A DNA stretch of 64,000 nucleotides from a virus, in the IMG/VR virus record IMGVR_UViG_3300046463_000548, positions 64,001-128,000 of that record. One strand, given 5' to 3'. Both the position numbers and the translations under genes were made by a program. Positions 2,350-58,954 of the stretch are shown piece after piece. The notes under the pieces are model-generated. The model ran no database searches. It had not been told where the DNA came from and was given only the letters and a program-made list of their open reading frames with translations. The first letter of the stretch is position 1. Every line of letters begins with the position of its first letter.

Positions 2350-2377
2350 TTGACGGTTTGTGCAGGACCTGTATAAT
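2350..2377 (+). promoter_or_regulatory. sigma70-type early promoter
   Basis: TTGACG-16 nt-TATAAT in an intergenic gap. Confidence 0.75.
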
Positions 2378-2419: not shown

Positions 2420-2662
2420 ATGAGCAAATTTACTGACCAGTTTGACGCGGTGGTGGCGGCGTTGAATAGTGCACCATTCGCCGCGCAAGTTGCTTGGGAT
2501 TCAGCAAGTTGCCATGCTCAAGACGTTCTTGGTGGCGAAGCATGCAAGTGGGAAACGGAGGCATTCAAGGAATACGTTGTCGGCTGCGTTGACCAAGCTT
2601 CGTACTTTCAGGAAAGCGCTGAGGCACGGGAGTTTTTCGAAGAATTCGGTATCTTTGGCTGA
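2420..2662 (+). CDS. hypothetical protein
   Basis: First ORF after promoter; GGGGA SD. Confidence 0.7.
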   Translation: MSKFTDQFDAVVAALNSAPFAAQVAWDSASCHAQDVLGGEACKWETEAFKEYVVGCVDQASYFQESAEAREFFEEFGIFG

Positions 2663-2672
2663 GGGGAACGGG

Positions 2673-3062
2673 ATGGACGGACAAGTGATCGACGTTTCTG
2701 TGTGCTCTGATCTGTACGTAGCGGGCCGCACCGAAGACGGTGAAATGTACACGGCCGAAGTTTATCTGGTGTGCGCTGAATTTGCGGACGGTTCCGTGTA
2801 CGCGCATAGCGAGCGCTTCAAGGGCTGCAAGATCGAAGAGTGGGCAGACGAAGACGATCACGGTACCGCGTTCGTTGACATCCGTGAAGAACAGAAGGCA
2901 AAGGCCGAGAAACTGGCTGCGCGTGTCAATCAGTGTGTGGCTACAGGCCGCAAGCTCGATCCGCAGTTCTGGACGTTTCATCGCACAGTGTACGGGTCTT
3001 CAGCCTACCTCCACGAAGTTGCAGAAATGACGCCACGCCAACGCGCGGGCGAACCGGATTAA
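2673..3062 (+). CDS. hypothetical acidic protein
   Basis: Start re-called at MDGQVID after GAGGGG SD. Confidence 0.7.
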   Translation: MDGQVIDVSVCSDLYVAGRTEDGEMYTAEVYLVCAEFADGSVYAHSERFKGCKIEEWADEDDHGTAFVDIREEQKAKAEKLAARVNQCVATGRKLDPQFWTFHRTVYGSSAYLHEVAEMTPRQRAGEPD

Positions 3063-3073
3063 GGGAGTAGCAG

Positions 3074-3301
3074 ATGGGTATCAAGTACGCCGTAGAGCAG
3101 CGCCTTCGCTTCATTGATTTTTTGGTGTCTCACTACGGCACGATCAACAGGGAAGCGCTCACCGACTACTACGGTATCTCGTTGCCTCAGGCGTCTGACG
3201 ACATCGCTGAGTACAAAAAGATGGCACCGAATAACATCGTGTATGACAACACCAAGAAGACCTACGCAAGGGGCGCACTGTTCGCGCGGGTGTGGGACTG
3301 A
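3074..3301 (+). CDS. stand-alone winged-HTH resembling the N-terminal domain of CapW/BrxR-type WYL repressors
   Basis: QRLRFIDF..G.INR.AL..YYGIS.PQAS.DI..Y...AP.N..YD...K.Y pattern; only 75 aa with no WYL/WCX domain. Confidence 0.75.
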   Translation: MGIKYAVEQRLRFIDFLVSHYGTINREALTDYYGISLPQASDDIAEYKKMAPNNIVYDNTKKTYARGALFARVWD

Positions 3302-3333: not shown

Positions 3334-3741
3334 ATGAAAATAAACAATCCTTTTCCCATAGAGATTGACGAACTGATGGCCCAGATGGCTGCGTTCGAGG
3401 AAGCCAACACGAAAGCGTGTATGGGTCCTGCACAGCGTACGGAGGGATTTCTGCTGCTCGGTACCTTCGCGCAGGCATACGTAAGTCAGGAGGTGTCGAG
3501 TCGTTTTGTCGGCTGGGTGATGGCGTCCATGGCGAGCGGGCGTAGTGTCCTGCCTGAGCCCGGAAGTGCGCACGATCTGCTGCGCTGGTGCAAGAAGTAC
3601 GAAAGTGTCCTGTCCAGTAGTCTGCTAGCGATGGAGGCTTCGAAAACTGACGCTGAAATACTGGAAGACTGTAGGGGCATGCTCGAAGCGTTGCGCGAAA
3701 CAATTAAGGTTGCGGAGAGCGGACAAACAGTGCGTCACTGA
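3334..3741 (+). CDS. hypothetical protein
   Basis: ORF in array; start re-called at MKINNP. Confidence 0.6.
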   Translation: MKINNPFPIEIDELMAQMAAFEEANTKACMGPAQRTEGFLLLGTFAQAYVSQEVSSRFVGWVMASMASGRSVLPEPGSAHDLLRWCKKYESVLSSSLLAMEASKTDAEILEDCRGMLEALRETIKVAESGQTVRH

Positions 3742-3755
3742 CAAGGCAAAGGAAA

Positions 3756-4001
3756 ATGACAAAAGCACAGCTTCAGAAACGGCTCGATGCGCTGGCTTCA
3801 GAGATTAATGCAATCGCTGGGGAACTGACGAAGCAATACGGGGAGGGCGCGAATCTCTACTTCGAGGCTGGCGGCACCATCTACGCGCTGACGCCAGAAC
3901 GACGCGCTCCGTTCAACAGAGATGCAACGCCGAACGAGCGACAGGCGCGGGTCATTGCGTCGAGCAGCGAGTACTGCAACTTTGATTGCGGTGCTTGGTA
4001 G
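3756..4001 (+). CDS. hypothetical protein
   Basis: AAGGA SD. Confidence 0.7.
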   Translation: MTKAQLQKRLDALASEINAIAGELTKQYGEGANLYFEAGGTIYALTPERRAPFNRDATPNERQARVIASSSEYCNFDCGAW

Positions 4002-4017
4002 CAAACACGGATAAACA

Positions 4018-4878
4018 ATGACAAAAAATCTTGATAACGAGCGCGCTGCATTCTCCGCATGGGCACGATCCAAGCGAGTAGCGGATAACGACTTTCACTT
4101 CTCCATCTGGCAAGCGGCGCTTGCATCCACTGCGACGAGTGATCCGGCCGCTGCCTTGCATGCAAGCCAGGTTCGAGCGTTGGCCGCTACCGTTCAGCGC
4201 CGAATCGACGCGTGCGGTGTCGCTGCGAATACGCCAGACGCTGATTATTTCGACGCGTCAACGAACTTGATTATCGCAGCGCGTGAACTGCTGTCTGCTC
4301 TGTGCGGCCAACCGGCCGATGCGACGCCTCTCGATGAGGACGCGTCCAAGGGTGCGACGTGCACTTATCCGCGATGCGCTTGTGCGCAGCCTTGCGCTAG
4401 TCGCGCCAATGGGGCGCGTGAAAAGTGCGCCGGGTGCATAGAGCGTTGCACCAACGATCCGCCCGATTGCTATGCCGCCAATGTGGCAATTGGGGAGCGG
4501 GGAATGTCTCTGCCTGAAGCTGGAACGGCCCTAGCTACAGCATTGGAAGGGGGGCAAGAGCCAGTTGGGTACGCATGGCAAAACGAGTTGGATGCCCTGA
4601 AAAATGGCGAAAAGATTAAGTGCCCGTTGTGGGCAAAGCCGGATGGTGATGAGGGGGAAGTGGCCCTCTATGCCGCCCCGCAACCAGCACAGGCACAGGT
4701 GAAGCTGACGGAGATTCAGCAGGCCATCGCCGACTATCACTTCGCTCTCGACACTCGCGCCCACGGCGGGGTTGCTCAGGACCGCGCGTTCAATGCGATT
4801 TGCAACGTGCTGGGCATGCACTGGAAACAGGGGGAGGAATTTGATCGACGCGCCAGAATGACGACGAGGACTGAATGA
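4018..4878 (+). CDS. mosaic phage early protein (EPVGY...LYAAPQP module, Cys-rich segment)
   Basis: Module typical of accessory Ea/Eaa-like proteins of proteobacterial phages. Confidence 0.6.
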   Translation: MTKNLDNERAAFSAWARSKRVADNDFHFSIWQAALASTATSDPAAALHASQVRALAATVQRRIDACGVAANTPDADYFDASTNLIIAARELLSALCGQPADATPLDEDASKGATCTYPRCACAQPCASRANGAREKCAGCIERCTNDPPDCYAANVAIGERGMSLPEAGTALATALEGGQEPVGYAWQNELDALKNGEKIKCPLWAKPDGDEGEVALYAAPQPAQAQVKLTEIQQAIADYHFALDTRAHGGVAQDRAFNAICNVLGMHWKQGEEFDRRARMTTRTE

Positions 4879-5288
4879 AGGTATCTGAATTGACCGGCGC
4901 AACGCTGGACTACTGGGTCGCCCGAGCCGAGGGCTTCAAGCAAGCCGATGGGCATTCTGACCCGATGACGTTGCAGTTTCCTGCCGGAAGCCTGTACGAT
5001 TTCCAGTTCGGCTACACAGCGCCACCGTTTTCGAGCGCCTGGCGATATGGTGGCCCGATCATTCAGCGCGAGAACATCGGCTTTCGTCGCGAGCGCGGAC
5101 TGGACGGTAGTGAGTATTGGGCCGCAGTGGTTGACCAGTTGTATCTGCATGAGCAGGACATCTATCAGGGCGGCGCTAATGAGTTCGGCCCTACACAGCT
5201 AATTGCCGCGATGCGTGCTTGGGTCAAAAGCAAGTTTGGTGAGACCGTCCACCTGGACACACAAGGGGAAGTGACGCCCACTGACTGA
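4875..5288 (+). CDS. NinX/DUF2591-like phage protein
   Basis: SELTG..LDYWVA.AEG...W..GGPII.RE.I...GPT.LIAAMRA. Confidence 0.75.
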   Translation: MKVSELTGATLDYWVARAEGFKQADGHSDPMTLQFPAGSLYDFQFGYTAPPFSSAWRYGGPIIQRENIGFRRERGLDGSEYWAAVVDQLYLHEQDIYQGGANEFGPTQLIAAMRAWVKSKFGETVHLDTQGEVTPTD

Positions 5289-7477: not shown

Positions 7478-7637
7478 CGCGAAAGTAGACGGCCAACAGT
7501 GCGCCCTGAGGTTCCGTGATCGGTTGGCTTCGTATGAAATCGAAGGCCCGTTCGTTTTGCACGATGACGGCCAATGGTACCGGATCGACCCACCATCGCA
7601 ACTAACGGTCAAGCCGACGCACTTCCGCCTGCTGTAA
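7452..7637 (+). CDS. small hypothetical protein (DUF551-like W...P THF pattern)
   Basis: GAGGA SD; MSDWIPV...KPTHFR. Confidence 0.6.
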   Translation: MSDWIPVADAKVDGQQCALRFRDRLASYEIEGPFVLHDDGQWYRIDPPSQLTVKPTHFRLL

Positions 7638-7639
7638 GC

Positions 7640-7698
7640 GTACACACCGGGATTTACACAACCCGAAAAACGGTCTATAGTACATACGTCGTACACAC
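7640..7698 (+). promoter_or_regulatory. vapBC promoter with GTACAYAC operator-like repeats
   Basis: TTTACA(7653)-17 nt-TATAGT(7676); GTACACAC 7640, GTACATAC 7680, GTACACAC 7691. Confidence 0.7.
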
Positions 7699-7717
7699 AC
7701 GATGTGAGGAACAACGA

Positions 7718-7954
7718 ATGACCACTACACGGGTTTTCAAGAACGGCAACAGTCAGGCCGTTCGTATCCCTGCTGAGCTTGCATATGACCGTACGGATAT
7801 CGATCTTGAAATCGAGCGCGTAGGGGACGAGATTCGCATTCGACCGATTGCCCGACCGCTGACCGGAGTGCTCAGGAAATTCGCGAAGTTCGGTGCAGAT
7901 TTCATGAGCGAGGGGCGCGGTGATCAGGAGCAGACTGAGCGGGAGGGTCTCTGA
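7718..7954 (+). CDS. vapB: AbrB/SpoVT-type antitoxin VapB
   Basis: TRVFKNGNSQAVRIP motif; start re-called at ATG 7718; TGATG coupling to toxin. Confidence 0.92.
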   Translation: MTTTRVFKNGNSQAVRIPAELAYDRTDIDLEIERVGDEIRIRPIARPLTGVLRKFAKFGADFMSEGRGDQEQTEREGL

Positions 7955-8361
7955 TGCCCCGCTACATGCTCGATACCAACATGTGCATCTACCTGATGAA
8001 GAATCAGCCTGAGCAGGTAGCCAAGCGGTTTGCGCAATGTGTCGTGGGCGATGTGGTGATGTCTGCCATCACGTACGCAGAGCTTGAATACGGCGTGGCT
8101 GTTTGCGAAAACCCTGCACGCGAGCGGCGTAATCTTTCATCGCTGATCGAGGACATTCCGGTCGTTCCGTTTGATGCACCGGCCGCCGTTGCGTACGGGC
8201 CGATTCGGCAAGCCACCCGCGACAAGAAAAAGGACCATCTGGACAAGCTCATAGCAGCGCACGCGGTTTCCCTTGACGTTCTGCTGGTCACGAACAACAC
8301 AAAGGACTTCGTGCAGTATCCGGGCGTCCGTCTGGAAAACTGGCTTGATGAAAGCCACTGA
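7954..8361 (+). CDS. vapC: PIN-domain toxin VapC
   Basis: YMLDTN...SAITYAELEYG...DKLIAAHA...LVTNNTKDF...ENW. Confidence 0.95.
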   Translation: MPRYMLDTNMCIYLMKNQPEQVAKRFAQCVVGDVVMSAITYAELEYGVAVCENPARERRNLSSLIEDIPVVPFDAPAAVAYGPIRQATRDKKKDHLDKLIAAHAVSLDVLLVTNNTKDFVQYPGVRLENWLDESH

Positions 8362-10276: not shown

Positions 10277-10786
10277 CTAGTTGGTCGCTTCCGCTTTCAA
10301 CTGAGGGCCGAACGACAGGGGCAGCGGGTCGGCTGCTAGCTCGGTGTTTTTCTGCTCGACCCACAAGCGTAGCTGCGCGGTGTTAGGTGCATCGTAGGAC
10401 AGCGTGAGATGCGCACGGTAGTCCGGGAACGAGTGCTGCAACCCTTCACCCAGCAACTCGGAGTGCAGCCGCTGTAGGTCCGGAGAATCGAGATAGGCAA
10501 CGAGCACCGGCCGCTGCTTGTGATCGAGCCACACCTGCAGGCTAGTCACCGATCCTTTGCACACGCGATCTGCTGGCGGCTTTACACCGAACGGAAGATC
10601 ATGCTTGTGGTAAAGCACAGTCACGTGAAAATCCGTGGAGTGGTTCGGCTTGAACGGCGCACCCGACAGAAAGTTGCCAAGACTCAGGATCGACTGCTCA
10701 TCCGGATCGGCCCACACGTAGAGTCCGGAGCCCGAATCAGCCTCCCGGATTTGATCGTAGAGAATCTGCGCTTCTATCTTGAACAT
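10277..10786 (-). CDS. acb1: anti-CBASS Acb1-like (T4 gp57B-like) 2H phosphodiesterase
   Basis: GLYV, HVTVLY and HSFPDYRAHLTLSY: two HxT motifs in the T4 57B layout. Confidence 0.8.
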   Translation of the reverse strand: MFKIEAQILYDQIREADSGSGLYVWADPDEQSILSLGNFLSGAPFKPNHSTDFHVTVLYHKHDLPFGVKPPADRVCKGSVTSLQVWLDHKQRPVLVAYLDSPDLQRLHSELLGEGLQHSFPDYRAHLTLSYDAPNTAQLRLWVEQKNTELAADPLPLSFGPQLKAEATN

Positions 10787-58758: not shown

Positions 58759-58954
58759 GAACGATCCTCAGGGCCTCAACACGCTGGATATCCAGGCGAC
58801 CCTCCGGAGTGCTTACGTTCATTAGCAAGCGCCACGACCCGTCGGGCAGTTTGTCTAGATGGATGAATTCCTTTTCAACGGCGGGCGTCGCGAACTTCGA
58901 CAGGTCTAGCAACAGGTGAAGGTCAGGACCTTCAATCTTGATCGAGCGTTTCAT
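58748..58954 (-). CDS. hypothetical protein
   Basis: ATGA coupling. Confidence 0.6.
   Translation of the reverse strand: MKRSIKIEGPDLHLLLDLSKFATPAVEKEFIHLDKLPDGSWRLLMNVSTPEGRLDIQRVEALRIVREV

Follow-up and report, generated by a model that had tools for sequence, protein, structure and literature searches.

The window analysed here is a 64-kb stretch, bases 64001–128000 of an IMG/VR virus record that measures 153.7 kb and has an estimated completeness of 63%. It encodes, among others, a tail fibre, a family-A DNA polymerase, and a helicase, and a search of the 153.7-kb record found no integrase. The 75-aa protein on which we focus, a short winged helix-turn-helix (wHTH) protein, has a 97%-identical counterpart on a 245-kb contig, and the source of the window is a large, probably virulent phage. 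The wHTH gene is part of a tightly packed rightward operon, and the features that matter here are:

2350–2377 (+), sigma-70-type promoter TTGACG-16-TATAAT at the head of the operon, 11/12 matches
2420–2662 (+), operon gene 1, 80 aa, acidic, without a known family
2673–3062 (+), operon gene 2, 129 aa, phrog_1507 (unknown function)
3061–3067 (+), Shine-Dalgarno sequence AAGGGAG, 6 nt 5′ of the wHTH ATG, read directly
3074–3301 (+), short wHTH gene, ATG start, TGA stop, 75 aa
3334–3741 (+), next gene after the wHTH gene, 135 aa, 33 nt downstream, without a family match
3756–4001 and 4018–4878 (+), further genes of the operon
10277–10786 (−), predicted Acb1-type anti-CBASS phosphodiesterase gene, 169 aa, 7 kb from the wHTH gene

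As the sequence-only reading of this DNA had stated, the ORF has its own Shine-Dalgarno sequence and its own stop codon. The Shine-Dalgarno sequence overlaps the stop of the preceding gene. The same reading placed it downstream of a near-consensus sigma70 promoter. The promoter holds up, but it sits ~700 bp 5′ of the wHTH gene, and since two small genes (2420–2662 and 2673–3062) intervene, the wHTH gene is third in the operon and not directly behind the promoter. The first 10 kb contain four promoter-like sites, a count not above that of shuffled sequences, and the site at 2350–2377 scores best. Further along the same rightward gene array, 4875–5288 (+) encodes a P22 NinX-like protein (PF10765, E = 1.6e-17; phrog_4389). 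At 7574–8361 (+), what by eye looks like an AbrB/SpoVT-like antitoxin followed by a PIN-domain toxin would make a VapBC-type pair; a promoter-like site (7653–7681) precedes the pair, and an 8/10 GTATA-type site at 7673 overlaps its −10.

By its sequence and its modelled structure, the 75-aa protein is a stand-alone CapW/BrxR-type winged helix. A phmmer search against all PDB chains found only CapW and BrxR, in each case their N-terminal 70–80 residues. The best match was Pa CapW (7tb5, E = 3.3e-15), followed by Sm CapW (7tb6, 5.7e-10), BrxR (7qfz, 1.3e-8), CapW (9c5g, 2.4e-7), and BrxR (7t8k, 2.4e-3). An AlphaFold2 model built with 25 homologues (mean pLDDT 95) has three helices (residues 5–21, 26–33, and 37–50) and a two-strand wing (55–58 and 63–66). 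Foldseek superposed the model on the winged helices of CapW and BrxR with TM scores of 0.84–0.96 and rmsd values of 0.5–1.2 Å, and the next-best folds had TM <0.7. This is an excellent structural match to the CapW wHTH, and the earlier assignment to the N-terminal winged helix of CapW/BrxR regulators is borne out by sequence (7tb5) and fold (TM 0.92–0.96) alike. Pfam, PHROGs, and PADLOC gave no match for the ORF; the Pfam search came back empty because the model PF26109 was absent from the set searched. This domain (WHD_BrxR) is precomputed on all 24 close homologues, which share 53–97% identity with the protein. We also considered an excisionase or recombination directionality factor and rejected it, since such a factor requires an integrase neighbour and the record has none. 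A Paraburkholderia prophage with a short wHTH has a separate Exc that adjoins Int.

The domain is widespread as a stand-alone protein. The word-index search returned 24 clusters of 73–84 residues and no longer relatives; the full-length forms came from a genome scan and a profile search. Scanning IMG/VR identified 38 loci, in which the frame ends 0–3 residues past the domain, except for two that run on for 6 and 10 residues. Gp088 of Stenotrophomonas phage Sonora, a 75-residue homologue with 62% identity, also ends right after the domain, so that all 38 IMG/VR loci and the Sonora gene are of the short form. Bacterial genomes contributed six short copies (60–68% identical, ending 0–10 aa after the domain) from Paraburkholderia, Luteimonas, Sulfuriferula, Geobacter, and Desulfuromonadales. 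Three of the six are, judging from matching sequences, apparently on contigs of IMG/VR records, two of which are proviruses. Bacterial genomes also contained 12 full-length-type forms with 39–50% identity to the query, nine complete at 275–311 residues and three others of 220–359. Among 1.84 billion representatives, a profile search picked up 2171 relatives; the 39 best-scoring ones all stop where the domain stops, and full-length forms set in at ~91 bits and below. In this search the short form makes up dozens of 50%-identity clusters. In a quick tree from 76 columns, which is poorly resolved, the short/long label changes 7 times, compared with 36 times for shuffled labels. Close pairs of short genes have dN/dS values of 0.055–0.15. 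With the family conserved and the C-terminus uniform, we see no decay, and the gene is real and functional; the sequence comparisons indicate that the short family is old and diverse and not a recent copy of a host regulator.

No sensor accompanies the short form. WYL (PF13280) had no match in the 153.7-kb record, and no WYL domain scored over the cut-off in the 39 other carrier records, of which 18 are at least 90% complete; these range from 42 to 315 kb and include proviruses and records with terminal repeats. The gene that follows the wHTH gene (3334–3741) gave no match in family searches and is not a WYL or WCX protein, in agreement with the initial observation that no WYL/WCX gene follows. 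A split WYL partner was rejected, as the 39 records contained only one sub-threshold match. This is a 142-aa ORF in L032 (2871–3299, +; 17.9 bits, E = 2.9e-4) that lies ~700 bp upstream of a tandem pair of short genes. Such pairs of adjacent, overlapping short WHD_BrxR genes occur in two complete phages with terminal repeats, L032 (107 kb; 4007–4228 and 4225–4446) and L040 (101 kb; about 3990–4210 and 4230–4440), and may indicate a heterodimer or two specificities. The neighbours of short wHTH genes are small phage genes of unknown function. No partner gene is conserved across the short-form loci (the top "cluster" is the wHTH gene read in antisense): from phage to phage the genes upstream differ, and the wHTH is conserved. 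In several phages the gene sits mid-operon and is translationally coupled on both sides.

Published mutagenesis established that mutations of R32, S42, Q45, and S47 in Sm/Ec CapW and of R17 in BrxR-Efer abolish DNA binding. By the offsets of the phmmer alignments, the CapW residues (Sm numbering) correspond to R26, S36, Q39, and S41 of the query and R17 of BrxR-Efer corresponds to R10, and all five are invariant or nearly so across the short family. Column profiles show that the DNA face is equally conserved in short and full-length forms (kept columns: R10, R26, S36, P38, Q39, A40, S/T41, D43, Y47, K62, and Y64), and that the short family is variable at recognition-helix position 37. Most of the positions that distinguish the two forms belong to helix 1 or the C-terminal end and spare the DNA face; the signature (short/full-length) is Y5/W, R12/E, L17/R, H-or-Q20/W, Y21/E, A28/D, R66/A, and R72/P. 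In full-length helix 1, W5, R17, and W20 are nearly invariant, and E12 and E21 are common. Published structures of CapW and BrxR show that each wHTH packs against linker helices and the WYL domain of the other protomer. The loss of two near-invariant tryptophans in the short sequences fits a long adaptation to life without linker and WYL partners.

To define the operator of the family, we searched for palindromes upstream of the 12 full-length relatives, several of which share GTATA-N5-TATAC. This palindrome matches the geometry and core of the site bound by E. coli upec-117 CapW, for which the published probe contains CGTATAATAATGCTACG (PMC11662680). With a threshold of at least 8/10 core matches, there are 14 sites in the 5.4 kb around the 12 full-length gene starts and nine in the remaining 100.6 kb, and nine of the 12 loci have a site within about 120 bp upstream. 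Four further full-length relatives were fetched independently, and three have a site, including a perfect CCGTATACTAATTATACGG. Pooled, a GTATA-N5-TATAC-like site lies just upstream at 12 of 16 full-length loci; the consensus was partly derived from two of these same loci, and neither the remaining loci nor the second set contributed to it. The operator is 35–120 bp upstream of the regulator genes at loci L051–L058, L074, L076, and L077, and at L054 its core occurs in up to four tandem copies. The relatives that share it are of the SxPQAS type and come from Acidobacteriota, Planctomycetota, Alphaproteobacteria, Lysobacterales, and metagenomes. Full-length relatives adjoin defence-type modules (ubiquitin-like/E2, E1/JAB/Schlafen-AlbA, HNH, and UDG/kinase). 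The full-length relative of Paraburkholderia sp. C35 (L072, 1423–2322) has a SEPAAT recognition helix, and the 100 bp upstream of it contain the palindrome CACAT-N5-ATGTG, which has the geometry of the GTATA site and another core. The pairing of this helix with this core fits a recognition helix that sets the operator core, as far as can be read from the sequences.

The operator is absent from the phage DNA. Around 46 short-form genes, there is one GTATA-type site in 20.7 kb nearby and 52 in 375 kb overall, which is background, and other half-site spacings and orientations are not enriched in 439 kb of phage loci. The whole 153.7-kb record holds one 9/10 operator site, compared with a control count of 3, and no palindromic operator was found near the short gene or in the whole record. 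The short gene has therefore not brought the ancestral operator along, and a target in trans is plausible; if the specificity is retained, full sites lie outside the phage. The 64-kb window has a single GTATART heptamer (3.4 expected), at 2371–2377, where it forms the −10 of the operon promoter. As a hint of self-control this is weak, because any consensus −10 after a G produces the heptamer, which turns up at least once in 97 of 100 shuffles. The spacer that separates −35 from −10 in this promoter contains a 13-bp imperfect palindrome, as read from the sequence. We saw no upstream region common to the window phage and Sonora. In Sonora, two copies of the 12-bp direct repeat ACCGTTCGTCGG lie with their starts 22 bp apart (L001 4979–5012; phage 58840–58873), just upstream of the TTTACT-16-TATACT promoter that heads the short-wHTH operon. 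Five lysogens carrying the short form were also searched. Exact operator sites are at or below control in the five genomes, and a full-length relative, whose recognition helix and palindrome differ, is present in only one of them.

The window also encodes an Acb1-like enzyme, as initially proposed. The ORF at 10277–10786 (−) matches 9q2g, "Anti-CBASS protein Acb1", over nearly its full length (E = 1.8e-35) and 7t26 (6.8e-8), has a weak 2H-phosphoesterase Pfam match, and is by these similarities likely a cyclic-nucleotide-degrading counter-defence gene. A general link between Acb1 and the short family was rejected, as only one of the 39 other carrier records has Acb1.

The short form resembles CapW, the wHTH-WYL-WCX repressor of CBASS (7TB5, 7TB6, and 9C5G), in fold (TM 0.84–0.96, rmsd 0.5–0.9 Å), in sequence (33–46% identity), in the SxPQAS recognition helix, and in the conserved arginines needed for DNA binding. 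Unlike CapW, it is phage-borne and consists of the wHTH without linker, WYL, or WCX, so that the ssDNA sensor and any known interface for dimerisation are missing. Its gene has no operator in front, and helix 1 shows the substitutions of the short family. BrxR, the WYL repressor of BREX and defence islands (7QFZ and 7T8K), shares the WHD_BrxR domain with all short homologues, and R17 of BrxR-Efer is the invariant R10 of the short form. BrxR differs in its WYL and C-terminal (WCX/BrxR_CTD) domains, and Acinetobacter BrxR reads DNA via a published SRQQ motif, whereas the short protein has a CapW-type SLPQAS. The CapW/BrxR pattern includes a palindromic operator in front of the regulator gene, next to a defence operon; in operator sites, short-form loci are at background. 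LexA Ind− and lambda cI ind− are repressor mutants that are not released by the damage signal. They are alike in concept, as repressors deaf to a signal, but they are point mutants of the cell's or the phage's own repressor, whereas here a separate phage-encoded head would act on host operators.

We tentatively interpret the short wHTH, in line with the initial proposal, which the analysis supports in part, as a signal-blind occupant of host CapW/BrxR operators, a reading to which we give somewhat less than an even chance. The protein would be synthesised early, from a promoter used by host RNA polymerase, and because its DNA-reading face is kept, it would most likely read the GTATA half-site, which forms part of the GTATA-N5-TATAC operators that overlap the promoters of WYL-controlled defence operons. 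Since the phage carries no such operator, the likeliest targets would be those of the host. CapW is pulled off DNA by ssDNA through the WYL/WCX sensor; a bound protein that has no such sensor would stay, and defence operons would be held at or below basal level while the infection makes the inducing signal. The defence-specific ancestry of the domain, its conserved reading head, the early promoter, and the operator-free phage DNA support this reading, and the co-resident Acb1 of the window phage also favours it. A motive is suggested by the finding that WYL-mediated derepression lets defence levels rise so far that the counter-defences of phages are overwhelmed (Seed-lab preprint 10.1101/2025.11.13.688357).

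Several points count against a signal-blind occupant. Linker, WYL, and WCX, through which CapW and BrxR form their domain-swapped dimers, are missing from the short protein, and even dimeric CapW is published to bind DNA only at 0.3–3 µM; BrxR-Efer with one half-site, however, is published to keep tens-of-nanomolar binding and repression. The family is ancient and diverse, and its identity to full-length forms does not exceed about 50%; it is therefore not tuned to one host's regulator. Only one of the five lysogens has a full-length relative, and exact operators are not above control. WYL repressors within one cell show no crosstalk (10.1101/2025.11.13.688357), Acb1 is not generally linked to the family, and repression cannot remove defence proteins already made at the time of infection.

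Where an early phage operon encodes a small HTH protein, this usually serves as a phage regulator. The short wHTH could likewise be the phage's own transcription regulator, for example a shut-off factor or autoregulator acting on its early operon, or a brake of the Aca type for an operon of anti-defence genes, in which case descent from CapW would not reveal what it targets today. We rate this only a little lower than the host-operator reading. The sole GTATART of the window is the −10 of its own operon, and a conserved wHTH behind variable upstream genes is the arrangement of Aca genes; Aca proteins, HTH regulators of co-encoded anti-defence genes (PMC13551039), are also small and phage-encoded and lie near variable small genes behind a strong promoter. 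These likenesses are countered by the lack of a palindromic operator near the gene or anywhere in the record, by the weakness of a G before a consensus −10, which most shuffles reproduce, and by the absence of an upstream region common to the window phage and Sonora. The mid-operon position, coupled on both sides in several phages, is not the operon end, and the promoter shows only the 13-bp imperfect palindrome. The short wHTH has no homology to described Aca families, and PMC13551039 names no winged-helix, WYL, or BrxR family among Aca proteins. The protein might also bind host DNA with another outcome, either as a monomer that competes with CapW/BrxR dimers and loosens repression or as a regulator of other host genes during takeover. 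The missing dimerisation domain, the variable position 37 of the recognition helix, and the lack of a full-length relative in most carrier lysogens would agree with this, but a virulent phage would suffer from derepressed defence, RNA polymerase should be hindered by whatever occupies operators that overlap the −10, and the DNA-contact residues are those of CapW; we consider it unlikely.

Binding to a protein instead of DNA is less probable still. The short wHTH would dock on the WYL or linker surface of host CapW or BrxR and jam the switch, and the packing of the wHTH on the linker helices and the other protomer's WYL domain in these regulators provides a precedent. The residues of full-length helix 1 are, however, replaced in the short sequences (W5 by Y, R17 by L, W20 by H/Q, E12 by R, and E21 by Y), the loss of the tryptophans would argue against docking on a host WYL domain, and the DNA face is at least as strongly conserved. 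That the gene is a decaying remnant of a captured full-length regulator is the least credible explanation, and we give it hardly any weight. Only the first 75 of roughly 290 parent residues are present, but the C-terminus is uniform in all 38 viral loci, dN/dS is low, the short form spans dozens of 50%-identity clusters, and the gene has its own Shine-Dalgarno sequence and a clean stop. A truncated pseudogene, as one form of such decay, is refuted by these conservation data.

In a literature search, stand-alone CapW/BrxR winged helices of phages did not come up in any paper. New here are the consensus of the operator, its lack in phage DNA, the dN/dS values, and the signature on helix 1. If the short wHTH is a phage-gene regulator instead of a signal-blind occupant of host operators, it still represents an unstudied, widespread family of phage regulators for which solved structures provide a template. 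The wider proposal, that short WHD_BrxR proteins are a widespread new type of phage counter-defence in which signal-blind operator mimics lock many defence islands off, is one that we hold as less likely than not, and the operator consensus makes it testable with defined DNA probes. Known phage counter-defences act on defence proteins or their signalling molecules, and a phage protein that took over the switch controlling transcription of defence islands would work at another level of the arms race. Given a GTATA-N5-TATAC operator that is conserved across phyla, one small phage protein could serve many hosts and lock CBASS, ubiquitin-like, and BREX-type islands off in them, and the priming response that overwhelms stoichiometric counter-defences would be blocked. 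A takeover of this kind would also explain why a sensor-free, defence-specific DNA-binding domain recurs in dozens of unrelated phages.
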